Source of the DNA: Candidatus Altimarinota bacterium
GTDB lineage: Bacteria > Patescibacteriota > Gracilibacteria > UBA1369
Length of the DNA stretch: 64,000 nucleotides
Direction of reading: 5' to 3'
NCBI GenBank assembly: GCA_963677745.1
Contig: OY782391.1
Span: 448,001 to 512,000 of the forward strand
Part shown: positions 5,785 to 21,673 of the stretch, piece by piece
Position numbering within the stretch: position 1 is the stretch's first letter
Layout of the letters: every line of letters starts with the position of its first letter
Position numbers and translations under genes: made by a program
The notes under the pieces: model-generated
What the model was told of the DNA's origin: nothing
What the model saw: the letters and a program-made list of their open reading frames with translations, nothing else
The model's database searches: none

Positions 5785-6558
5785 ATGCTTGCAATTTGTT
5801 CAGACAGTCTCAAGGGGTACGGCCTAAACCGCATTTTCAAGTTGGTCAAGGAAGCCGGTTTTGACGGCCTGGATCTGAATATCGATCCAAAAAACTTCGA
5901 CACCCAGAACGCCGAATACGTAAAAACACTGGTCGATCAGTATCAGTTACCGGTTCTGGCACTTTCCACCCCTATCACCAGTTCCGCCAAAAAAATCCAG
6001 GGAGCAGTGGATATGGCCAAAACACTCGGTACCAAAGTAATTGTCATCCAGCCCCCCAAGATTTTTGATTTTCAATATTCGACCTGGCTCAAAAACGAAA
6101 TCCCCAAGATCAGACAACGTGAAAACATCTCCATTGCGCTGGAAAACGCCCCCTCGGAAACTTTCCTGGGAATTATTCCGGAGCATTCCATGAACAATGT
6201 GATCGACCTGAAAAAATTCAAACATGTCTGTGTCGACACCACCCGCGTGGCCACCAGAAAAGAAGACCTGATCCGCATTTATAAAGCCCTCAAGCCTTAC
6301 CTGGTCCATGTCCACCTCAGCAACCTCAAAAGCGGTACTCCTTACAGCCTGCCGGATACCGGTATTCTGCCCATCGAGAGTTTTCTGACCAAACTGAAAC
6401 AGGACGGTTTCCCGGGTACCATTTCCATGAAAATCAATCCGAAATTTTTGGATCTGGAGGACCTCAACAAACTCAAAAAACATCTGGATGATCTGCTGAA
6501 GTTCTACACCACCTACTTCACCAATATCAAAACCCTAAAATCAACCGAGTCAGCGTGA
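5785..6558 (+). CDS. Xylose-isomerase-like / AP endonuclease 2 TIM-barrel protein with degenerate metal ligands
   Basis: AGFDGLDL, IALENAP, VCVDTT, HVHLSN, LPDTGILPI pattern. Confidence 0.8.
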   Translation: MLAICSDSLKGYGLNRIFKLVKEAGFDGLDLNIDPKNFDTQNAEYVKTLVDQYQLPVLALSTPITSSAKKIQGAVDMAKTLGTKVIVIQPPKIFDFQYSTWLKNEIPKIRQRENISIALENAPSETFLGIIPEHSMNNVIDLKKFKHVCVDTTRVATRKEDLIRIYKALKPYLVHVHLSNLKSGTPYSLPDTGILPIESFLTKLKQDGFPGTISMKINPKFLDLEDLNKLKKHLDDLLKFYTTYFTNIKTLKSTESA

Positions 6559-7265: not shown

Positions 7266-8533
7266 TGTACATCAAACTAATTAAAAGCAGCTGGAAAGCC
7301 GAACCAAGGAAAATTATCCTGATGTTTTCCGCGCTGACACTGGGACTGGTACTGATCACCCTGCTGTCCGCCCTCAACAGCGGACTGAAAAATTTCTTTT
7401 TTGCGGAAAGCCAGCAGGAAAAGATTCTCCGCGAATTGAATGTTAAAACCAAAAGCCAAACCCTGGGACTAAGCCTGGTTAACCTGATTCCGCATGCTGA
7501 ACTGACCACCGCCACCCTCGATCAGATCAAAAAGATACCCGGTGTGGCGGAAGTTCTTCCCACCAATACCATCAGCGGCATTTCCTCTTTGCAGATCGGC
7601 ATCCTGGGACAGTGGTTTCAAACCGACGCTCTATTATATGGGGCAGGTTATGAACTTCTGGACAGTAAAACCGTCACGGCCAACGCCTGGAACAATTATC
7701 AGGAACCTTACCCCGCTGTAGTTTCGTCCAAACTGATCGATCTCTATAATTTTTCTTTCGCCAATGCCAACAACCTGCCCCAGTTGACCGAAGAAAATTT
7801 TCTGGGTTCGGAAGTCAGAGTCCTGCTCAATCAATCCACCTTCTTTGCCGCCAATACAGGAGAGGTAAAGGAACTGCGGGCCAAAATTATCGGATTCTCT
7901 CCCAACGTAAAATTAATCGGCCTGACACTGCCGCTACCGGCCATCGAAAGAATCAACCGTGACTTCCTCAACAAAAACGACTCCTACTTCCTGGACGCAA
8001 CCGTCCGGGTCAAGTCCCCCAAAGAACTCAGTGCGGTAAAAAGCCGCCTGGAAGAATTGGGACTGGATGTGAAAACCGCCGAATCAAGTCTCAAGTCACT
8101 GGAAAAACTGTTTTTTCTGACTGATCTGGCCCTCAATATTTTCCTGGCAATCATGATCATCATGGCCGGCCTGTTGATCTCATCAACTTTCCTGGCCAAA
8201 ATTGCTGAAAAAAGCAGGGAAATTGCCATTCTCAAAACACTGGGAATGACCGGACCAAGAATTTCACTTCTTTATCTGCTGGAAGCGGCTCTGGTAGGAC
8301 TGGGGGCCAGCATCGCCGGAATCATCCTGGCCTATTTAATCTCCCTGCCCCTGGAATCTTTGATCGCCTATTCGGTAAAAACTCTCATCAATAAACCCGA
8401 AAGATTTTTCCAGTTCAGTCCGGGACAAAATTTATTGTTAATTTTATTCGCGGTTTTAATATCCTGCCTGTTCGCCTATTTTCCCTCTCGCAAAGCGGCA
8501 AAACTCGATCCGATAGAAATCCTGGCCAGGTGA
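7265..8533 (+). CDS. ABC transporter permease (MacB/FtsX family)
   Basis: One N-terminal TM, large extracytoplasmic loop, three C-terminal TMs; EKSREIAILKTLG and PSRKAAKLDPIEIL. Confidence 0.9.
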   Translation: MYIKLIKSSWKAEPRKIILMFSALTLGLVLITLLSALNSGLKNFFFAESQQEKILRELNVKTKSQTLGLSLVNLIPHAELTTATLDQIKKIPGVAEVLPTNTISGISSLQIGILGQWFQTDALLYGAGYELLDSKTVTANAWNNYQEPYPAVVSSKLIDLYNFSFANANNLPQLTEENFLGSEVRVLLNQSTFFAANTGEVKELRAKIIGFSPNVKLIGLTLPLPAIERINRDFLNKNDSYFLDATVRVKSPKELSAVKSRLEELGLDVKTAESSLKSLEKLFFLTDLALNIFLAIMIIMAGLLISSTFLAKIAEKSREIAILKTLGMTGPRISLLYLLEAALVGLGASIAGIILAYLISLPLESLIAYSVKTLINKPERFFQFSPGQNLLLILFAVLISCLFAYFPSRKAAKLDPIEILAR

Positions 8534-8591
8534 ATGGATAATCACTATTCGATCAAGTCAAGTTGTTTTTGTAGTGCATCCGATAAATGTT

Positions 8592-8619
8592 TTGACAACC
8601 GGACCGTGGTACCTATACT
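8592..8619 (+). promoter_or_regulatory. sigma70 promoter of rpoB-ssb-rpoC
   Basis: TTGACA(8592)-16 nt-TATACT(8614). Confidence 0.7.
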
Positions 8620-8638
8620 GGCGCTAGGCTGTCAGAGA

Positions 8639-8770
8639 AGTATCAGGAGTTGATTTTACTTACAACCAAGGCAACTGATCATTGCTGAAGTTTATCACCC
8701 TGCGATACTGTCGATTGCGTTGTTGAAGATAGCAATACCATCATACGGAGAGACTCTCCCGATTATGGTA
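8639..8770 (+). ncRNA. Candidate structured 5' leader RNA of rpoB
   Basis: Nested pairings AGTATC/GATACT, AGG/CCT, TGAT/ATCA, ACTT/AAGT, GCAA/TTGC (8639-8709); then hairpins ATTGC/GCAAT and TACCAT..GGAGA/TCTCC..ATGGTA. Confidence 0.5.
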
Positions 8771-8801
8771 ATTGTCCCAGTATATTCATTATTTCAAGAA
8801 T

Positions 8802-11800
8802 ATGCCGAAGAAAAAATCTTCCACATCGAAAGCCAAGAAGCCACTAAAAAAAGCCGCAGCGTCAAAAAAGACCGCTTCGGTCAAAAAGCCGGTTAAGATT
8901 AAGAAAGCCCCGGCCAAAACTTCCAAACCGGTAAAAAAGACAGCAGCCAAACCAGCCCAGAAAAAGAAGGCTGTAAAGAAGGTTTTGAAAAAGACCGTCT
9001 CCAAAGCTGCCAAAAAAGCTTCCCCCGCCAAGAAAAAGCCCGCTGTCAAAAAAGCACCGGTTAAAGTTAAAAAACCGGCCGCCAAAGTCAAAGTCAAACC
9101 GGCTCCCCAGAAAACGGTCAAAAAAAACGTGCCCGTCAAACCCGTAAAAACGGTTAAAGCCAGCACGCCCAAAGTTCCGGCCAAAAAAGTTGAAAAGCCC
9201 GCCAAGGAAATCAAGGCCGTACAGCCAAAAGCCGCTCCTCAAACCGCCGCCAAGAAAACGGAAAAAGAACTTCCGGCCGCTCCTGCCAAAAAAAGCAAAG
9301 AAAACGTCCGGGAAATTCCCCGCAAATTAAACAAAGACTTTTCTCTGGCCGAAGAAGTTTCAAGACTGCTGCCCAAGGAAAACATTATCATGAAAGAATC
9401 GTCCAACCGGAGATTCTTCACCGATCGTATTGATAAAGACATTGTTCTCCCCAACCTGATCGAAATCCAGCTGGATTCCTATCGCTGGTTTCTGGACATC
9501 GGTATCCGTGAACTGCTGGATGAAATTTCTCCGATTACCGATTTCTCCGGTAAAAAACTGGAACTCCAGTTTTTGGAACATTCCGTGGACGAACCGAAAT
9601 ACGACCCTGAAACCTGCCGTCTAAAAAATCTGACTTACGAAGCTCCCCTCAAAGTCCACGTACAGCTGATCAACAAGGAAACCGGTGAAATCAAGGAACA
9701 GGACGTCTTTTTGGGCGCCATTCCGCTGATGACTCACAAAGGAACCTTTATCGTTAACGGAATCGAAAGAGTAGTTGTTTCCCAGATCGTCCGCTCCCCC
9801 GGCGTGTTTTTCTCAAGAAATGCCGGTGCCCTGAACTCCTTCAACGCCAAGATCATCCCCAAACGCGGTGCCTGGCTGGAAATCGAAACCGATAAAAAAG
9901 GTATTATCAGCGTGAAAATCGACCGCAAAAGAAAAATCCCCGTGACTTCGCTGCTGCGCGTTTTCGGTTATCCCACTGACGACGAAATCCGGGATGTTTT
10001 CAAGGATGTGATCGGAGGTCCGGATAAAGACTATATATTAAATACTCTGGACAAGGACACCTCCAAAACCGTCGACGAGGCATATCAGAACATTTACAAA
10101 AAGATCCGCCCCGGCGACCTGGCTACTCCCGAGAATGCCAAATCACTGATCCAGTCGATGTTTTTTGATTACAAGAAATACGATATGGGACCGGTGGCCA
10201 GATACAAACTCAACAAACGTTTCAACCTCAACACTCCCAACACCAAAGATTTTCATACCCTGCAGGTTGAAGACATCGTTTATATTCTGAAACATCTGAT
10301 TCAGCTCAATAACGGCATCGGCAGAGAAGATGATATCGATCATCTGGCCAACCGCCGCATCCGTGCCGTGGGTGAACTGGTGCAAAACAAATTCCGCGTG
10401 GGTTTGCTGCGCACCGACCGTATCGCCAAAGACCGCATGACAGTGATGGATCTGGAAACGGTTACCCCCACCCAGCTGATCAATTCCCGCCCGATCACCG
10501 CCGCCCTGCGCGAATTCTACGCCAGCTCACAACTTTCCCAGTTTATGGATCAGACCAATCCGCTGGCCGAACTGGCACACAAACGCCGTCTGTCCGCCAT
10601 GGGTCCCGGAGGTTTGACCAGAGAAAGAGCCTCCTTCGACGTACGTGACGTGCATCCGTCCCATTACGGAAGAATCTGCCCGATCGCCACTCCCGAAGGT
10701 CCGAACATCGGTCTGGTCGTGCATCTGGCCACTTATGCCCGCGTCAACAAATACGGCTTCATTGAAACTCCTTACCGCACCATGAACGACACCATCGCGG
10801 TCAAAGATATCAAGAAACTGAAAGGCAAGAAACTGCGCTCCGACCTGATCAATCCCGCCAACGGCAAAATTATTCTGACCAAGGAAACAGTGCTCGGTGA
10901 AAAAGAAATCGCCAAGATCAAGGATTTGGGATTTGAAACCATCAAAGTTTTCAAACACACCACCGACGACGTGCGTTATTATGCCGCCGACGAGGACAAC
11001 GACAAAGTGATCGCGCAGGCCAACACCAGACTGGATGAGGAAGGACAGATAGTCGATTCGCTGGTTTCCGGAAGACAAAACGGAGAACCGGAACTGGTTC
11101 CGGCCAAGAACATCACGCACATGGACATCTCCCCGAAACAGATTATCTCCGAGACCACGGCCCTCATTCCGTTTTTGGAACACGATGACAACACCCGCGC
11201 CTCCATGGGTTCCAACATGCAACGTCAGGCCGTCTCACTGATCTCTCCGGATGCTCCGGTGGTCGGTACCGGTATGGAAGAAATAGTCGCCAAGAGTTCC
11301 GGCCAAATCTATCTGGCCGAAAACAACGGTACGGTTTCCTACGTTGATGCCGAACAGATAGTAGTGATCTACGACAATGGTAAAAAAGCCATCTACAAAC
11401 TCAACAATTACGTCCGCTCCAACCAGTCCACCTGTATTCATCACCGGGCCAGAGTCAACAAAGGCCAAAGAGTAACACGCGGTGATGTCCTGTCCGACGG
11501 TCCGGCCACCGAAAACGGTGAATTGGCCCTGGGCAAGAATGTCCTGGTCGCCTATATGGCCTGGAAAGGTTACAACTTTGAAGACGCCGTAATAGTATCC
11601 GACCGCATCGTTAAAGCCGGCTATTTCGATTCAGTACACATTGAAGCATTTACCATCGACGTCCGCGACACCAAGCTGGGCCCTGAAATTATTACCCGGG
11701 ACATTCCCAATGTCGGTGAAGCCAGACTGAAAGATCTTGATGAAAACGGAATAGTGAGAATCGGTGCCACCGTCCGCGAAGGTGACATCCTGGTCGGTAA

Positions 11801-13088
11801 AATCACCCCCAAGGGCGAAACCGAACTTTCCGCTGAAGAAAGACTTCTCCGCGCCATTTTTGGCGACAAGGCCAGAGATGTTAAAGACACCTCGCTGCGT
11901 CTGCCCGGAGGTGAAGGCGGCAAAGTGGTGGGAGTTCAGATCTTCTCACGCTCCAACGGCGATGAACTGCCGACCGGAGTCAATCAGCAAATTAAAGTAA
12001 ACGTCGCCCAGACCAGAAAAGTATCGGTAGGTGACAAAGTGGCCGGAAGACACGGAAACAAAGGTGTCATCTCGGTCATCGTGCCTCAGGAAAATATGCC
12101 ATTTTTGGCAGACGGCACCCCGATCGACATCATTCTCAACCCGTTGGGTGTGTCATCCCGTATGAATATCGGACAGATTCTGGAAGTGCATCTCGGCTGG
12201 GCCGCCAGAAAACTTAATTTCACGGTTGCCACCCCCGCCCTTAACGGTATTCACACCGACCAGATCAAAGAACTGCTCAAACAGGCAAAACTGCCCGAAG
12301 CCGGTAAAATTCAGCTTTATGACGGTATTACCGGTGAGCCTTTTGATCATCAGACCACAGTGGGAATTGCCTATATTATGAAACTATCCCATCTGGTTGA
12401 AGATAAAATTCACGCCCGTTCAGTCGGTCCTTACTCTCTGGTCACCCAGCAGCCGCTCGGTGGTAAAGCCCAACACGGAGGACAGAGATTCGGAGAAATG
12501 GAAGTATGGGCACTGGAAGCTTATGGTGCCGCCCATACCCTGCAGGAAATGCTGACCATCAAGTCCGACGATATCTATGGCCGCGCCAAAGCCTACGAAT
12601 CAATTGTCAAAGACGAACCGATCAAGAAACCAAAAACCCCTGAATCGTTCAACGTTCTGGTACGGGAACTGCAGTCATTGGGTCTTTCCGTTAAATTTGA
12701 AAACTCACACACCTCGGCTGAAGATGAATACGAAGGTAACCCCGAACTGGAAGATGTGGCCGAAATAGAACCCGAGACCAGAGAAAGTCTGGCCCTGCAG
12801 GCGGAGATTACTCAAAAAATTGCTGCCGAAGGGGAAGAAACGGATAAAGTTGAAAAGAATGTTTCCGGAATTGAAGTGGTGAAAGACACCGAAGAAGAAA
12901 ACCTGGAAGTCAAAGAGATCAAGGAAGAAGGAGATCCTGCCGACCTGGAAGATTTCGCCAAGATGGAAGCGGAACTGGATCTGGATCAGATCGACGCCCC
13001 GGAAGAGGAACTGCGGGCTATGGAAGAAAATCCCCTGCCCCTGGAAGATCTGGATATCCCTGAAGTAGATGAAGACGTTAAGCCCTAA
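8802..13088 (+). CDS. rpoB: RNA polymerase beta subunit with Lys/Ala/Pro-rich N-terminal arm and acidic C-terminal tail
   Basis: [67 protein letters not shown] 8802 preferred over TTG 8772. Confidence 0.98.
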
Positions 13089-13112
13089 AATACTTCATAA
13101 CACAGATGGCCT

Positions 13113-13538
13113 ATGAGAAGTGTCAATAAAGTAATACTCATCGGAAATCTCACCCGCGACCCCGAACTGAGACAAACTCCGGGAGGGCAGGCGGTCTGCA
13201 CCTTCTCAATTGCCACCAACAGGGAATGGATCACCAAGGACGGCGGTAAACATTCCCTCACCGAATATCACGATCTGGTCGCCTGGGCCAAACTCGCCGA
13301 AATCTGCAGCACTCACCTCAAAAAAAGCAAACTGGTCTACGTGGAAGGATACCTGAAAACCCGCAGCTGGGAATCTCCGGAAGGAATAAAGAAATTCAAG
13401 ACGGAAATTGTCATTCAGGATCTGATCATACTGGACCGCAAAGAATACACAGCCTACAGCAGCGAAGAATTTGTCCCCCAGGATTATCCCGACGCACCGC
13501 CCGCCGCCACCGACATCGATCTGAACCTTGGTCTGTAA
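13113..13538 (+). CDS. ssb: Single-stranded DNA-binding protein with non-canonical C-terminus
   Basis: SVNKVILIGNLTRDPELR, FSIATNREW, VYVEGYLKTRSW; ends DIDLNLGL. Confidence 0.95.
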   Translation: MRSVNKVILIGNLTRDPELRQTPGGQAVCTFSIATNREWITKDGGKHSLTEYHDLVAWAKLAEICSTHLKKSKLVYVEGYLKTRSWESPEGIKKFKTEIVIQDLIILDRKEYTAYSSEEFVPQDYPDAPPAATDIDLNLGL

Positions 13539-13590
13539 AAAAATCACCAAGTTAAAAACCCCCCGTTTAAACAATTAACTTCAAAGTAAA

Positions 13591-16500
13591 ATGAGTTTCA
13601 ACGACAATAGTAATTCAGCCCAAAACAAAGCCCGAGAGGCCTTCGATAAAATTTCCATTTCGGTTGCTTCACCCGAAGAAATTCTGTCCTGGTCATTTGG
13701 GGAGGTAAAGAAACCGGAAACAATCAATTACCGGACACAGAAACCGGAAAGAGACGGTTTGTTTTGTGAAAAGATCTTCGGTCCCACCAAAAACTGGGAA
13801 TGTTATTGCGGAAAATACAAAAGAATCCGTTATAAGGGAATCATTTGTGAAAAATGCGGAGTCGAAGTCACCCACTCCTCAGTCCGCCGCTCCCGCATGG
13901 GACATATTAAACTGGCCGTGCCGGTAACCCATATCTGGTTTCTGCGTTCCACACCTTCCAGAATCGGCCTGCTTTTGGATCTGCCCATCAAAGCCATTGA
14001 ACAGGTCGTTTATTTTGCCGCCTATGTCATCACCGAAGTTGATGAAAAAGCCAAGGAAGAGGCCCGTGAACAGCTGACCAACGAATACAAGAACCTCCGC
14101 AAAAAAATCCAGGAAGACTCTTCCCGTGCCACCGCCGGTGCCAATAATGAAAAAGGCAAAACCGACAAAATCGAAAAAGATTACTCCCATAAACTGGACG
14201 AACTGGACAGCCAGCACAAAAAGACCAAGGAACAGCTGGAAGGAATCCGCATCACAGCCATCTACTCCGAACTGGAATATCGTGAACTTTCAACCAAATT
14301 CGGTCAGATCTTCAAGGCTGGCATCGGCGCCGAAGCCATCCGTCATATTATCCAGAACCTCGATCTGGAAGTGATGATCAAAAATCTGGACAAAGAACTG
14401 GTAAAATCTTCCGGACAGAAGCAGAAAAAAATCATCAAAAGACTGAAATTGGCCGGAAGCCTGCTCAAAGCCGATATCCGACCGGAATGGATGATCATGA
14501 CTGTCTTACCGGTAATTCCACCGGATCTGCGTCCGATGGTACAGCTGGACGGTGGAAGATTTGCCGCCTCCGACCTGAATGACCTTTACCGCCGTGTCAT
14601 CAACAGAAACAACCGTCTGAAGAGACTGATGGCCATCGGCGCTCCCGAAGTGATCTCGCGCAATGAAAAGAGAATGCTGCAGGAAGCCGTAGACACACTT
14701 TTAAATAATTCCGCCCGCGCCGGCAAAACAGTTTTCAATTCCGGGGACAAACGGAAACTCCGCTCCCTCTCCGACATGCTCAAAGGTAAGCAGGGACGCT
14801 TCCGCCAGAACCTGCTCGGTAAACGTGTCGACTATTCCGGCCGCTCCGTAATCGTGGTAGGTCCTTCGCTGAAACTGGATCAATGCGGTTTGCCAAAACA
14901 GATGGCCATGGAACTTTTCAAACCGTTTGTGATCGGCAGACTGATCCGCGACGGACTGGCCCACAACATCAAGAGCTCGGAAAAACTGATTCAGGCCGGT
15001 ACCAAGGAAGTCTGGGATATTCTGGAAGAGGTCACCTGTGACCGCTATGTACTTTTAAACCGCGCCCCGACACTGCACAGACTGGGTATTCAGGCTTTCC
15101 GTCCCGTACTCGTTGAAGGTAAAGCCATTCAGATCCATCCGCTGGTTTGTACCGCTTTCAACGCCGACTTTGATGGAGACCAGATGGCCGTCCATGTGCC
15201 GCTTTCCAAACCGGCCCAGGAAGAAGCCAAGAATCTGATTTGTTCCAGTCACAACCTGCTTAAACCATCGGCCGGCGAACCAATTGTTACTCCGGTACAG
15301 GACATGGTATTGGGCTGTTATTATCTGACCAAGGAAACTCCGGGCAAAAACGGTGAGGGCACCAACTATACCGATCTGAATGAGGCAATCCTGGCCTGGA
15401 GAACCAGCAATCTTCACCTGCAGGCCAAAATCAAAGCCCGCTTCCGCGGAGAAATCCGTGAAACCACTCTGGGCAGACTGATTTTCAACAGTTTCCTGCC
15501 GGAAGAACTCCCCTATTACAATCAGACTTTTGGCAAAAAACAATTGAGCGCACTGCTTAACGACGCCTTTCTGATAGTCGGCGGCGCCAAAGTCGCCGAG
15601 ATCGTCGACCATCTGAAAAAAATCGGTTTTGAATTCGCCACTTATTCGGGTCTATCCATCGGCGCCGCCGACATGATCATCCCCCCCACCAAGGGCAAGA
15701 TCATCGACGATGCTTCGGGACAGATCAAACAGATCAACAATCTGTACCAAAGCGGTCTGATTACAGACAACGAGCGTTACAACCACACTATTAAGACCTG
15801 GAACAAAGCCAAAAACGAAATCTCCAAAGTGATGATCGACGGTATCGATCCCGAGAATGATCTGCACTATATGATCAACTCCGGAGCCCGTGGTAACTGG
15901 GGACAGATTACCCAGCTCTGCGGAATGAAAGGCTTGGTGGCCAATCCTTCCGGTAAGACGATCGAACTTCCCATCAAATCCAACCTCAAAGAGGGCTTTA
16001 CCATTCTGGAATACTTCATCGCCACTCACGGAGGACGTAAAGGTAAATCCGATACCGCCTTGAAAACCGCTGAAGCCGGCCATTTGACCCGTCGTCTGGT
16101 CGATTCGGTACAGGATATCATCATCAAAGAAATCGATTGCGGGTCCGTCCATTCCCATATTGTCACCAAAACCGAATCCGACCGTATCGGTGAAAAACTG
16201 GAAAACAGAATTTTCGGACGTGTTCTGGCTGAAAACGTGGTTAACCCCAAAACCGGAGAAATAATTGCCGAAAAAGGCCAGGAAGTTGACCGGAAAATCA
16301 TCAAACAGATCGAAGACTTCAACGTGGAGGAAGTTAAAGTCCGCTCAGTCATCACCTGCCGCACCCGCGGCGGTATCTGTGTCCGTTGTTACGGCAGAGA
16401 TCTTGGTACCAACAAAACCGTCGAACCCGGAACAGCCGTCGGTATCATCGCCGCACAGTCAATCGGAGAACCTGGTACGCAGTTGACGATGAGAACCTTC

Positions 16501-17493
16501 CACATGGGTGGAGTTGCTTCCGAAGAAGGAGACATCACCCAGGGTCTGACCCGCGTGGAAGAACTGTTTGAAGCCCGCGCCCCCAAATCACCGGCCATCA
16601 TGACCGAACTGTCGGGTATCGCAGAAATTACCAGCAAAGGCCAACTGACCGAAATCAAAGTCACCACCGAAGAACCTCTCGAAAAAGACTATCTGCTGAT
16701 CGGAGATCTGGAAGCCACCGTCAAAAAAGGTGACGTGGTAAAAGAGAAAGAAATCATTGCCAAGTCCCCGCTGAGCAAGAATATGATCAGAGCCGAATTT
16801 AACGCCAAGATTCTGGAGGTTAACACCAATCACGTTCTGCTCCGCAGCATGGATCTGATTTCCCGCACCTATAAGATCCCCTTTGGTAAAATCATCAAGA
16901 TCAAGAACAAGGCCAAAGTTCAAAAAGGCCAGTCATTGACTTCCGGCCACCTCAACCTGCGCGATCTGATCAATCTGACCGACGTCTACACCGCCCAAAA
17001 ATATCTGGTTTCCGAGGTCCAAAGCATCTACGCCTCACAGGGACAGACCATCAACGACAAACACATTGAAATCATCGCCCGCCAGATGCTCTCCAAAGTC
17101 AGAATTGTCGACCCCGGAGAAACGCATTATCTGCCCGGTGAAGTGGTAGACATCCTGGAAGCCGAAGACGCCAACCTGAAAATGGAAAAAGAGAACAAGA
17201 AAATGGCTTCCGTGGAAAGACTGCTTTTGGGTCTAACCCGCATCTCGCTCCACACCGACAGCTGGCTCTCCGCAGCCTCATTCCAGGAAACAATCCGTGT
17301 TCTGGTCGAGGCTTCCACCACCAACAAAGTGGATGTACTGGAAGGTCTGAAGGAAAATGTTATCATCGGTAAACTGATTCCCGCCGGCGAAACCTACAGA
17401 AAACGCCACCCGGAACTGGTCGATGAATTTGCCAACCTGGGAAATAAAGAACCTCAAATGATCGAAAGGCCGAAATTCTATCCGGCCATCTAG
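13591..17493 (+). CDS. rpoC: RNA polymerase beta' subunit
   Basis: Zn ribbon CYCGKYK...CEKC, catalytic [28 protein letters not shown]. Confidence 0.99.
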
Positions 17494-17504
17494 TTCAAAA
17501 AAAC

Positions 17505-17533
17505 TTGCAATATCAAGTATCGTTGTGTAGATT
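17505..17533 (+). promoter_or_regulatory. Promoter of rpsL-rpsG
   Basis: TTGCAA(17505)-17 nt-TAGATT(17528). Confidence 0.55.
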
Positions 17534-17596
17534 GTTGCAGCATTTACCACCTCGGAATCACTAAAAAACTTCATAAATATCACCTAATTCAAGACA

Positions 17597-18013
17597 ATGC
17601 CAACCATTAATCAATTAATCCGCAAACCCCGCAAGCCAAAACTCAAGAAGAGTAAGTCCCCGGCCTTGCTGACCGCTTTCAACTCGCTGAAAAACCGCTC
17701 GGTTAAAAACTGCAGCCCGTTCAAGAGAGGCGTTTGCATTAAGGTTGGAACCATGACTCCCAAGAAACCTAACTCAGCTCTCCGCAAATTCGCCAAAGTC
17801 AGACTCACCAATATGGTTGAGGTTAATGCCTACATTCCCGGTGAAGGACATAATCTGCAGGAACACAGCGTCGTGTTGATTCGCGGCGGCAGAGTAAAGG
17901 ATCTGCCAGGTGTACGTTATCACATTGTCAGAGGCATTCTTGATACACAGGGAGTTCAGAACCGCAAACAGGGTCGTTCCAGATATGGAGCCAAGAAACC
18001 CAAAAAAGCATAA
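17597..18013 (+). CDS. rpsL: 30S ribosomal protein S12
   Basis: [26 protein letters not shown]. Confidence 0.99.
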
Positions 18014-18043
18014 TCAGTAAAAAAATTTAATCGACACTAAGCA

Positions 18044-18499
18044 ATGGCACAGAAAAGACTACATATTATCCCGGAAAATTCTTCCCCGCTGCAGGAAAAA
18101 TTCATCAACTGCGTTATGAAACAGGGCAAGAAGAGTACCGCCCAGAGAATATTTCAGGACGCTATGGATTTAATAGCCGCCAAAGGACACAAAGAACCGG
18201 TCAAAATTTTTGAGAAAGCTTTGGAAACAATCAAACCGACTCTGGAAGTCAAAGCCAAGAGAATCGGCGGCGCCGTTTATCAGATTCCAATGGAAGTAAA
18301 AGCCAACCGCCAGACCACTCTGGCCATCCGCTGGCTGCTGGAAACCACCCGCTCCAAAAGAAACGCCCCCATGGCCAAGAAACTGGCCGACGAATTGATT
18401 CTGGCTGCCAACAACGAAGGCGCCGCCATCAAAAAGCGTGACGACGTAATCAAGATGGCCCAGGCCAACAAGGCTTTCGCCCATTACGCCAAATACTAG
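18044..18499 (+). CDS. rpsG: 30S ribosomal protein S7
   Basis: GKKSTAQRI, RIGGAVYQIP, MAQANKAFAHY. Confidence 0.98.
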   Translation: MAQKRLHIIPENSSPLQEKFINCVMKQGKKSTAQRIFQDAMDLIAAKGHKEPVKIFEKALETIKPTLEVKAKRIGGAVYQIPMEVKANRQTTLAIRWLLETTRSKRNAPMAKKLADELILAANNEGAAIKKRDDVIKMAQANKAFAHYAKY

Positions 18500-18541
18500 A
18501 AGCAGACCCGCGGCTTTTTGGCCGAAGTAAAAAAACAATCA

Positions 18542-18574
18542 AAAAGAGGCCCCCGCTACGCGGGGGCCTCTTTT
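18542..18574. terminator. Bidirectional intrinsic terminator
   Basis: AAAAGAGGCCCCCGC-TAC-GCGGGGGCCTCTTTT between convergent genes. Confidence 0.9.
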
Positions 18575-18582
18575 AAAACAAT

Positions 18583-19452
18583 TTATCTGTCCCAATCTTG
18601 GCGGACCTTGACTTTGACCAGCTTCATCTTTTTAACCTTTTTCTTCCTCCAGACCAATATTCCTAACGGAAAGGGTGCAATAGTCAGTAAGATGATTGCC
18701 AGCCAGACCAAAAGAGCATCCTGACAACTAACTGTGATCTGATAACCGCCAAATGTATAAATCCTGCAAACTGCCCCCTCCGCCCCCAGCCGTCTGCCGG
18801 GAGCAGCCGGCCTGAACAGATTCACCTCGCTGCAGGTCAGATCCTCACAAATTTCCGGTGCCACCGCCTTCAGAATTTCAGCCCCTACCTGCTGACCAAC
18901 AGCCTGCACCTGTTGGACAATCTGTTGCTGTTGCTGTTCCGTCAATTGGGAAACCGGAGCCGGCTCTTCTATTTCTGTAACCGGTTCGACCGGAGTGGCA
19001 GGCTCCTTGATGTCGGGCAATTTAAAAGGCTTCTTGACGGGAGGTTTTTCTACAACCTCGGGAACAGTTGGCCCTTCGGGACAATCACCCGTTAACGAAC
19101 AGGCCGGAGTTCCCCAGTTTATCGATCCGCTGCCACCGCCACCGCCCCCACCGGCTGGCGGTGGAGGTGGCGGTGGTGTGACAGTACCGCCACAAGCACT
19201 TAATACGGCAAAATCCCCGGTACACTCGGTATAACCGGGGCTGGCATTTACACCTCCGTAATAGTCAATGCTGTCATTAAGTTTGTAACCGCTGGAGCTA
19301 CTGATATTGGCTTCAGGATTAACAAAATCAACCGCCTTATAGCTGGCGGAGCTGCTCTGGGCGTTAGCCAAGGCTAAACTCGCCAGAAATATGGCTGCCG
19401 CAAGGGAAATTCTAAACATTTCCAGTCCCAATTGTCTTATGTTAATTTTCAC
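18583..19452 (-). CDS. Exported Pro/Gly-rich protein with C-terminal membrane anchor
   Basis: Signal peptide (LALANA), SSxSYK repeats, P8/G-run linker, Cys pairs, C-terminal TM followed by a basic tail; own TGTGTTATAAT promoter at about 19473-19487 (-). Confidence 0.8.
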   Translation of the reverse strand: MKINIRQLGLEMFRISLAAAIFLASLALANAQSSSASYKAVDFVNPEANISSSSGYKLNDSIDYYGGVNASPGYTECTGDFAVLSACGGTVTPPPPPPPAGGGGGGGSGSINWGTPACSLTGDCPEGPTVPEVVEKPPVKKPFKLPDIKEPATPVEPVTEIEEPAPVSQLTEQQQQQIVQQVQAVGQQVGAEILKAVAPEICEDLTCSEVNLFRPAAPGRRLGAEGAVCRIYTFGGYQITVSCQDALLVWLAIILLTIAPFPLGILVWRKKKVKKMKLVKVKVRQDWDR

Positions 19453-19518
19453 TACAGCTGTTAAATCTCTAAATTATAACACAAAAAGCCCCTCCTGCAT
19501 ATACCCGGAAGCTGTTTC

Positions 19519-19546
19519 TTGACTTCTCAATAACAAAACTTATAAT
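19519..19546 (+). promoter_or_regulatory. Dedicated fusA promoter
   Basis: TTGACT(19519)-16 nt-TATAAT(19541). Confidence 0.75.
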
Positions 19547-19588
19547 GGCCGCGACTTTTTAAATTTCTAACCTTTTTTCCAAGTTATC

Positions 19589-21673
19589 ATGTCGAACTTT
19601 GACCTCAGCAAGCTCCGTAATTTTGGTATCATTGCACATATTGATGCCGGTAAAACAACTGTTTCCGAAAGAATCCTCTACTACACCGGAAGATCCTACA
19701 AAATCGGTGAAGTGCACGAAGGTGCCGCCACCATGGACTGGATGGAACAGGAAAGAGAAAGAGGTATTACCATTACCTCCGCGGCCACAACCTGCCACTG
19801 GAAAGATTATCGTTTTAATCTGATTGACACCCCAGGCCACGTGGACTTCACGGCCGAAGTCGAACGCTCCATGCGCGTACTGGATGGTGGAGTAGTGGTT
19901 TTTGATTCATCCCAGGGCGTTGAACCCCAATCTGAAACAGTCTGGAGACAGGCTGATAAATACGGCGTTCCCCGTATCGCTTATGCCAACAAACTGGATA
20001 AAATCGGCGGTGATTTTGTCATGACCATCAATACCATCTGGCAGAGACTTTCCAAAGACGCCGTAGCAATTCAGTTACCGGTAGGCATCGAAGGAGATTT
20101 TCACGCCATCATCGATCTGATTGAAGAAAAATGTTATGAATTCCACGGGAAACTGGGAGAAGACGTGGTGGAAGTCCCGATTCCGGAAAACATGATGGCT
20201 CTGGTAGCCGAATATCGAAATACATTAATCGAGAAAGTGTCCGAAACCGACGACGCACTGATGGAAAAATATCTGAAGGGTGAAATCCCTACAGTACCTG
20301 AAATTAAAGCTGCACTTCGCAGTGCCGTACTGGCAACCAAGCTCTTCCCGGTCATGTGCGGATCAGCTTTAAGCAACAAAGGCATTCAGCTGGTGTTGGA
20401 TGCAGTCATTGAGTACCTTCCTTCCCCCGTTGATATCGGCGTAGTCAAAGGAACCAATCCCGATACCGGCCTGGAGGAAAGCCGCCGTCTGGTCGACGAC
20501 GAACCATTTTCCGCCCTGGTATTCAAAATCGCCACCGACCCTTATGTCGGGAAACTGGCTTATTTCCGGGTATATTCCGGAAAGCTGGAAGCCGGCAGTT
20601 ATACTACTAATATGAACAACGGCCGCAAGGAAAGAATCGGCCGCATCCTGCGCATGCACGCCAATCAGAGAGAAGAGATCAAAGAAGTACACGCCGGAGA
20701 CATTGCCGCGCTGGTAGGTCTGAAAGAAAGTATGACCGGCAACACACTGGCTGATGAAAACCGCCCGATTATTCTGGAATCCATTGATTTCCCGGAACCG
20801 GTTATCAAGATCGCCATTGAACCTAAAACCAAGGCTGACCAGGAAAAGATGGGCATGGCCCTGCATAAACTGGCCGAAGAAGATCCGACTTTCCGCGTTT
20901 CCACCGATGAGGAAACCAGCCAGACTCTGATCGAAGGTATGGGAGAACTTCATCTGGAAATCATCGTTGACCGTATGCGCCGCGAATTCAAGGTTGAGGC
21001 CAACGTCGGCCAACCGCAGGTTGCCTACCGCGAAACCATCACCCAGGCCGTCAAAGCCGAGGAAAAATACGCCAAACAAACCGGTGGCCGCGGTCAGTAT
21101 GGTCACGTACTGATCAACCTGTCCCCCAACGAATCCGGTAAAGGATACGAATTCGTCAACGCCATCGTCGGCGGTAAAATCCCCCGTGAATTTATTCCGG
21201 CCGTTGATAAAGGTATTCAGGAAGCCCTGACCCGTGGCATCCAGGCCGGATTCCCGGTTGTGGACGTGAAAGTGGAGCTCTATGATGGTTCCTACCATGA
21301 CGTGGACTCCAATGAGCTGGCCTTTAAGATTGCCGGTTCCATGGCCTTCCAGAAAGGCTGCCGCTCCGCCACCCCCATTATTCTCGAACCAATTATGAAA
21401 GTAGAAGTTACCACCCCCGATGAATATTTCGGTGATGTTATGGGTAATCTTTCCTCACGCCGCGGGCAGATTTATGAAACCAGCAACCGCGGTATGGCCA
21501 AGGTGATTGCCGCCTATGTCCCGCTTTCGGAAATGTTCGGTTATGCCACCGATCTCCGTTCCATCTCTCAGGGACGCGCTGCCTATGCCATGGAATTCAA
21601 CCGTTACGAAAGAGTCCCCAACAATGTTGCCGAAAAAATTATCGCCGAAAGAGCCAAAGGAAAAGCCTCATAA
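19589..21673 (+). CDS. fusA: Elongation factor G
   Basis: [34 protein letters not shown]. Confidence 0.99.

Follow-up and report, generated by a model that had tools for sequence, protein, structure and literature searches.

In the Peregrinibacteria/Gracilibacteria a gene for an SSB, a protein that binds single-stranded DNA, stands between rpoB and rpoC, and its product ends in a nearly invariant acidic-hydrophobic tip, DxDLGL, where other single-OB SSBs have DDDIPF or DDDLPF. SSB paralogs are known; the position in the rpoBC operon and the tip are real, clade-wide and apparently new, as no description of the rpoB-ssb-rpoC order or of the DxDLGL tip was found in the full-text literature, a scope outside which most subscription journals and bioRxiv supplements fall. 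The adjacency of rpoB and rpoC and the IPF tip of SSB rank among the best-conserved traits of bacterial genomes; here a whole CPR lineage departs from both. The reading that we tentatively prefer is that the junction copy recruits partners, is expressed at a level that follows RNA polymerase (RNAP) and works on ssDNA, transcription-generated ssDNA among it.

The stretch of DNA analysed (the window, 64 kb) is a CPR-type chromosome segment with hrcA-grpE-dnaK, serS, rpoB, rpoC and a ribosomal cluster. The features that matter here, in window coordinates, are the following.

8592-8619, plus strand: sigma70-type promoter TTGACA-16-TATACT of the probable rpoB-ssb-rpoC(-rpsL-rpsG) unit, upstream of rpoB, with 11 of 12 consensus matches
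8627-8737, plus strand: conserved rpoB leader RNA motif, with closing stem GCU(A/G)UC...GAUAGC, variable insert and GAnUGnGUU core
8802-13088, plus strand: rpoB (RNAP beta), passing the NCBIfam equivalog cutoff
about 8802-9375, plus strand: Lys/Ala-rich N-terminal arm of beta, about 190 aa, within rpoB
12687-13085, plus strand: acidic C-terminal tail of beta, 133 aa, within rpoB
13113-13538, plus strand: ssb paralog of the rpoB-rpoC junction, ATG start, 141 aa
13113-13442, plus strand: OB fold (residues 1-110), keeping all four aromatics that stack on ssDNA and a His that matches E. coli H55
13470-13484, plus strand: [YF][IV]P[ED] motif ("YIPE"; FVPQD here), just after the OB fold, present in 114 of 120 top homologues
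13512-13535, plus strand: C-terminal tip D-I-D-x-D-L-G-L, spelled DIDLNLGL here; as a short linear motif it closes a variable acidic linker
13591-17493, plus strand: rpoC (RNAP beta-prime), passing the NCBIfam equivalog cutoff, with hydrophobic end KFYPAI
17597-18499, plus strand: rpsL-rpsG, probably on the same transcript as rpoC (rpsL lies at most 400 nt from rpoC in 49 of 53 complete rpoC genes)
18542-18574, no strand assigned: strong GC-rich hairpin 3' of rpsG with a stem of 15 pairs, likely transcript end

The ssb gene starts 24 nt after the end of rpoB (13088) and stops 52 nt before the start of rpoC (13591) on the same strand, and a pattern scan of 8400-18700 returned no promoter-like and no terminator-like site at either junction, in agreement with the spacing and the lack of an obvious terminator given in the original prediction. 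The gaps are as short in relatives, with medians of 39 nt for 64 gaps, the window's among them, and 38.5 nt for 56, and one candidate terminator was found at 120 rpoB/ssb/rpoC junctions. From these short gaps and the near-lack of terminators, ssb is likely to be co-transcribed with rpoB and rpoC, as had been claimed. A promoter pattern equivalent to the window's is present in 51 of 54 rpoB upstream regions. Because the first strong hairpin comes only 3' of rpsG, the transcript probably runs rpoB-ssb-rpoC-rpsL-rpsG; the terminator-like call on that hairpin is on the minus strand, the plus strand having just a short T run after the stem. The most likely start of RpoB is the ATG at 8802 (MPKKK, matching relatives), and not the TTG at 8772.

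The family assignment of the product is secure, with 133 bits to TIGR00621 (NCBIfam cutoff 54) and 116 bits to Pfam PF00436 over residues 4-104 (cutoff 26). In an AlphaFold2 model the pLDDT exceeds 90 across most of the OB fold, and the best Foldseek matches of the model are bacterial SSBs without exception (e.g. 5odn, E 7e-14). Aligned to E. coli SSB, residues W39, Y52, W58 and W86 correspond to W40, W54, F60 and W88, and H53 to H55; the predicted retention of the OB-fold aromatics thus stands for all four of the aromatics listed as stacking on ssDNA in the E. coli protein (in a passage of PMC10573954). Three of them (W39, W58 and W86) are invariant in 51 aligned homologues. Given the conserved fold, the junction SSB would be expected to tetramerise and to bind ssDNA. 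Like E. coli SSB and the SsbA of S. aureus and B. subtilis, it combines an OB fold and stacking aromatics with a disordered linker and an acidic C-terminal tip, and it differs from these single-OB proteins (PF00436, TIGR00621) in ending DxDLGL rather than DDDIPF/DDDLPF, in an acidic, Gly-poor linker and in the extra YIPE motif.

The OB fold is under purifying selection and its codon composition is native: in comparison with four relatives pN is 0.03-0.16 and pS 0.58-0.96, and GC3 is 0.61 (0.52-0.59 in neighbouring genes). With pN so far below pS the gene is not a pseudogene. Nor is a recent phage or other horizontal origin supported, as phage SSBs reach less than 60% identity at best among 2370 matching records, GC3 is near that of the neighbours, and the junction and rps-operon copies fall in one group. 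A search for repeats or mobile-element scars at the junction returned nothing convincing.

The arrangement is also old. A genome scan matched at least 599 stretches, 585 of them relatives, and the best 80 loci were analysed (Peregrinibacteriota 53, Altimarinota/Gracilibacteria 14, no phylum given 13); because the best 80 of 585 relatives were taken, the sample leans towards query-like proteins and yields no count of genomes without the insertion. Among these best 80 loci, 64 place ssb at the rpoB/rpoC junction and 16 in rpsF-ssb-rpsR, which rules out an assembly artefact or one-off insertion; 60 have both rpoB upstream and rpoC downstream, and 4 more show one side before the contig ends. Of the 60 loci that show both neighbours, 54 have the gene exactly between rpoB and rpoC, and they span two deep clades; the synteny survey proposed with the original prediction therefore finds the order to be clade-wide. 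Both deep clades carry the insertion in a tree of beta and beta-prime, which has 64 rows and E. coli for an outgroup and excludes split ORFs and fragments shorter than 750 aa. The one genome seen without a junction copy, L036, in which rpoB and rpoC are adjacent (45 nt), is sister to the smaller clade, and it follows from these two placements that the insertion is old and that either L036 lost it or the smaller clade gained it a second time. The junction position is kept across beta-prime identities of 52-86%, and a sister clade of nine loci retains it while the DLGL tip is absent. The junction also accepts unrelated passengers, since a Na/Ca exchanger gene lies between ssb and rpoC in six loci from at least two separate sub-clades (PF01699 confirmed in three of the six):

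L008:7470-8435, L017:10536-11486, L020:10552-11517, L024:10561-11532, L029:10642-11601, L054:7094-8053: exchanger genes

The junction gene is not the ssb of rpsF-ssb-rpsR, a site occupied by a separate paralog in the 16 loci mentioned above (S18 Pfam-confirmed in 16 and S6 in 15; at the remaining locus S6 is partly masked). Six assemblies yielded both copies, which are kept in all six genomes sampled twice, so that paralog status is borne out and, among the relatives, neither of the two findings that had been named as telling against it (a sole ssb in the genome, an insertion unique to this assembly) was made. Within the 64-kb window no second ssb, rpsF or rpsR was found. The search for a second, canonical ssb was thus answered in part: the second copy exists in six relatives, but the rps copies are not canonical at their ends, with IPF/LPF in 0 of 16, a terminal F in 9 of 16 and no Phe near the end in 5. 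The RpsF ORFs at these rps loci are long, at 170-260 aa, and exceed the 90-aa S6 domain (L014:9199-9891, L049:9205-9990, L078:6845-7540 and others).

A broader tree unites the junction and rps copies in a single group of 49 leaves, none of them xPF-tipped (FastTree support 0.88), so that the duplication is specific to the lineage, the Peregrinibacteria/Gracilibacteria. The trees interleave the two kinds of copy and do not separate them cleanly (4 changes in two trees). In the careful tree the sister-clade OB folds join six rps copies at 97/92, but since an AU test covering 40 of 81 rows could not reject separate clades (p 0.103), this grouping is suggestive only. Within one genome the two OB folds are 59-74% identical, and both evolve equally fast (74% versus 74% mean identity among six genomes), with no sharp diagnostic column. 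Recent gene conversion between the paralogs is not seen, as a genome's own junction copy ranks 13th to 64th of 65 against its rps copy. In L036:1-10734, rpoB-rpoC stands back-to-back with rpsF-ssb-rpsR, about 2.1 kb apart, and proximity of this kind could have eased the original duplication.

At the C-terminus the original prediction described the Gly-rich linker and the canonical acidic-IPF tip as lacking. The tail is indeed Gly-poor and ends DIDLNLGL, but to speak of a lacking acidic tip is misleading, because the tip is re-spelled rather than lost, being acidic-hydrophobic and nearly invariant. A terminal [LF][GED][LIV] is found in 116 of 120 top homologues, L standing at -3 in each of the 116 and the consensus reading D-I-D-x-D-L-G-L, while ends of the DDD[IL]PF type (IPF/LPF) occur in none of the 120 and in none of 65 junction copies. 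The 64 junction loci comprise 52 DLGL-type tips (loose pattern), 8 proteins with an internal NxFDP motif instead and 4 incomplete ones. Junction copies are 138-215 aa long with linkers of about 25-105 residues, and a nearly invariant tip on a linker of variable length has the layout of a docking motif; in the AlphaFold2 model of the window SSB the tip is a short helix (135-138) of low confidence. The Gly-poor, non-IPF tail is in itself no mark of special status, since the rps-operon paralogs have such tails too (tail Gly 6% in junction and 7% in rps paralogs, against 26% in E. coli). What does differ is the YIPE motif, found in 51 of 65 junction copies versus 2 of 16 rps copies, and the order at the tip. 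Around the rps copy of locus L074, 120 matches divide into 60 DLGL-type and 60 other proteins; in the former, five of the final eight positions hold about 4 bits (the last three fixed by class definition), and the latter, which are sequences without genomic context, have about 1.2 bits per tip position, with 6 ending in F and none in xPF. In the DLGL lineage, then, the conserved tip of docking type belongs to the copy in the RNAP operon, and the rpsF-ssb-rpsR copy is often without one.

The work may have been split between the copies. Under the preferred reading, an old, lineage-specific duplicate of the housekeeping ssb was fixed between rpoB and rpoC, where co-transcription from the rpoB promoter would make the amount of junction SSB follow RNAP and growth rate. 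The rps-operon copy, its defined tip largely lost, may then have been left with bulk ssDNA coating, while the junction copy would have retained the recruitment of partners through a re-spelled tip, DxDLGL for DDDIPF/DDDLPF, and would bring genome-maintenance enzymes to ssDNA, including that of R-loops and fork-RNAP collisions; contact with RNAP would not be needed. As the decayed tip is that of the rps copy, the junction copy may be a general partner-docking SSB and not one dedicated to RNAP. The contrast between DLGL tips of about 4 bits and others of about 1.2 bits favors such a split, as does L036, whose rps copy has the most canonical-looking tip seen, DDDHIEF (two tree neighbours end DDGIEF and DDKIEF), although this case for compensation draws on one lineage. 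Further observations agree with the preferred reading, namely that the OB folds of the two copies evolve equally fast, that the position is kept while the tip changes (NxFDP in the sister clade), that the exchanger gene travels as a passenger at the junction, that the arm and tail of beta do not track the insertion, and that no fusion with RNAP was found among 24 longer matches. For SSB-linked handling of replication-transcription conflicts HolC provides a precedent (passages of PMC8092217 and PMC8144910).

On the other side, a position kept across the beta-prime identities given above exceeds usual passive hitchhiking, and the AU test leaves separate junction and rps clades standing. The known partner pockets of SSB read a terminal Phe, not Leu, which also counts against the preferred reading. 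The hand-over of partner recruitment from the rps to the junction copy fails as an argument if these genomes hold a third SSB with a canonical tip, and a tandem two-OB protein with an xPF tip is a possible third SSB of these organisms: tandem two-OB SSBs ending EDLPF or DEIPF occur among the protein matches, and P0121-P0129, P0255, P0257, P0262, P0263 and P0276 are tandem two-OB SSBs with xPF-like tips, some of them INYESEIKPEDLPF, apparently not of the Deinococcus type. No tandem two-OB SSB was found in the 80 loci or the window. Should the DLGL tip replace IPF, a full set of SSB partner pockets would have been re-coded for a Leu-ended motif, a natural test of co-evolution in the SSB interactome.

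It is possible, though we consider it unlikely, that the tip docks on RNAP itself. Here the DLGL tip, alone or together with the YIPE motif, would bind beta or beta-prime and tether the OB folds at the bubble or the RNA exit, where SSB could hold the non-template strand, strip nascent RNA from DNA or activate promoters as N4SSB does via beta-prime. An SSB-RNAP link is reportedly known from Sulfolobus. The exact placement of ssb between the core subunit genes in two deep clades and the specificity of tip and YIPE motif for the junction copy argue for such docking, and there is precedent in N4SSB, whose C-terminal residues touch the beta-prime C-terminus, and in E. coli SSB, which displaces transcripts for N4 vRNAP (passages of PMC4496689 and, for N4SSB, of PMC7145618). 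In these passages the N4 and E. coli SSBs act as transcription factors on phage transcription; the junction SSB shares with them a possible link to RNAP via C-terminal residues, but is cellular and encoded in the core RNAP operon. Against docking on RNAP, the nine sister-clade loci hold the same position without the DLGL tip, L036 does without a junction ssb, the unrelated exchanger gene also sits at the junction, and the nearest phage SSBs are below 60% identity. The clade-specific residues of beta and beta-prime are mostly conservative and confounded with phylogeny, and no fusion of SSB to RpoB or RpoC was found among 24 longer matches of 181 candidates, which is weak evidence.

Nor do the beta extensions co-vary with the insertion. 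The original prediction had joined ssb, both beta extensions and the leader RNA into a single system, which fails on co-occurrence: the Lys-rich arm is absent in four loci with a DLGL tip (L029, L037, L048 and L054) and in six sister-clade loci with an intact beta N-terminus, while the acidic tail (39-165 aa) is present in every rpoB locus examined, L036 with its lack of a junction ssb included, and the leader core can be made out in L036 by eye. The arm is histone-H1-like and of very variable length in the 80 loci (absent to about 220 aa), and is missing in several sub-clades; several beta tails have an acidic-Tyr motif (EEYT) resembling the YIPE motif of the SSB. Beta-prime often ends in a hydrophobic tip (YPVI, LPVI, LAII) after an extension of 40-50 aa, such a tip being absent in the FDP clade and in L029, L037, L048, L051, L053 and L057. 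We are doubtful that the RNAP of Peregrinibacteria/Gracilibacteria has a dedicated, co-expressed SSB subunit or factor that docks via DIDxDLGL and manages the non-template strand or nascent RNA, in an operon under its own leader RNA. If the tip does dock on RNAP, a cellular bacterial SSB would be part of the transcription machine, matching N4SSB or the OB-fold stalk found in the polymerases of archaea and eukaryotes; whichever reading holds, an 8-residue peptide makes the docking question directly testable.

A good deal less probable is that the junction copy serves as a reservoir of the SsbB kind, an abundant second SSB protecting DNA taken up from the environment or a host for recombination or nucleotide salvage, with the rpoB operon supplying a strong growth-linked promoter. 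DNA uptake is known in Patescibacteria, and a strong promoter does lie upstream of rpoB. The competence SsbB of S. pneumoniae and B. subtilis and the SsbB of Streptomyces resemble the junction gene in being a second chromosomal copy beside the rps-operon one, and in Streptococcus and Bacillus such second SSBs are very abundant and shield incoming ssDNA (passages of PMC3128108). In the same passages, however, SsbB is made only at competence and its role has no need of the tail, whereas the junction copy belongs to a housekeeping operon and has an invariant tip. No competence gene was found among reference-matched neighbours, and as far as seen there is no competence regulon, the junction gene standing behind a housekeeping sigma70 promoter; unlike SsbB it is close to its sister in the OB fold, and it is the non-rps copy that has the better conserved tip.

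The leader RNA bears on another reading that we regard as improbable, in which the tip is a protease degron setting the level of SSB, the OB fold binds the rpoB leader to autoregulate the operon, or both. A promoter and hairpin lie upstream of rpoB in about 50 loci, the leader stem directly after the promoter. In 28 sequences 98% of cells in the stem are paired and 3 of 6 pairs show two-sided changes, with relatedness inflating the shuffle control; 37 of 54 regions contain the strict core, where 2.4 would be expected. A covariance model picked up 10 of 26 held-out rpoB loci, 5 of these at E < 0.05, and missed 16, L036 among them, with one weak match elsewhere, and the folding energy of the window leader is not unusual (MFE z -0.63). 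Rfam gave no match at gathering and none at E up to 10, Lacto-rpoB and Rhodo-rpoB included, and no description of a GAnUGnGUU leader was found in the full-text literature (subscription journals and bioRxiv supplements lying outside this scope too). Lacto-rpoB (RF01709) and Rhodo-rpoB are likewise structured RNAs 5' of rpoB, described as unrelated to each other; the present motif has its GAnUGnGUU core and variable insert where Lacto-rpoB has a GAUAUUGUCC loop (passages of PMC2864571 and PMC5737381). The leader is a candidate new rpoB cis-regulatory RNA, a further such candidate for RNAP homeostasis.

Regulation through tip or leader can draw on the conserved leader in the same operon, on beta-prime, which likewise often ends in a hydrophobic tip, and on S. 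mutans SsbA, the C-terminal LPF of which is a ClpXP degron (in a passage of PMC5143411). A three-residue degron nevertheless leaves the conserved D-I-D at -8 to -6 unexplained. SSB folds are not known to be sequence-specific, which counts against binding of the leader. Since its core is seen by eye in L036, where junction ssb is absent (the covariance model missed this locus), the leader seems independent of the ssb insertion and is best seen as a separate control element of rpoB. Least likely is a redundant dosage copy without a distinct partner, its tip retained on structural grounds, for instance because it folds back into the groove for ssDNA; the OB folds of the paralogs are near-equal and interleaved in trees, but invariant ends after linkers of such different lengths point to a specific binding site and both copies persist wherever a genome was sampled twice.

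Several features of the surrounding DNA were recorded along the way. Upstream of rpoB, a gene for a xylose-isomerase-like TIM barrel (PF01261; window 5785-6558) is kept in many loci, often accompanied by serS and an ABC transporter pair. Downstream, the str operon is split, the hairpin after rpsG being followed by a minus-strand gene and then by promoter-like TTGACT...TATAAT before fusA (window 18542-19589); the minus-strand protein of 289 aa (18583-19452) had no Pfam or NCBIfam match. Further along, window 40721-63359 encodes a Ca-type P-ATPase, HrpA helicase, a DnaQ-DinG fusion helicase, a LemA/MamQ-like protein and uvrB, of which DinG is a candidate partner for the SSB tip.
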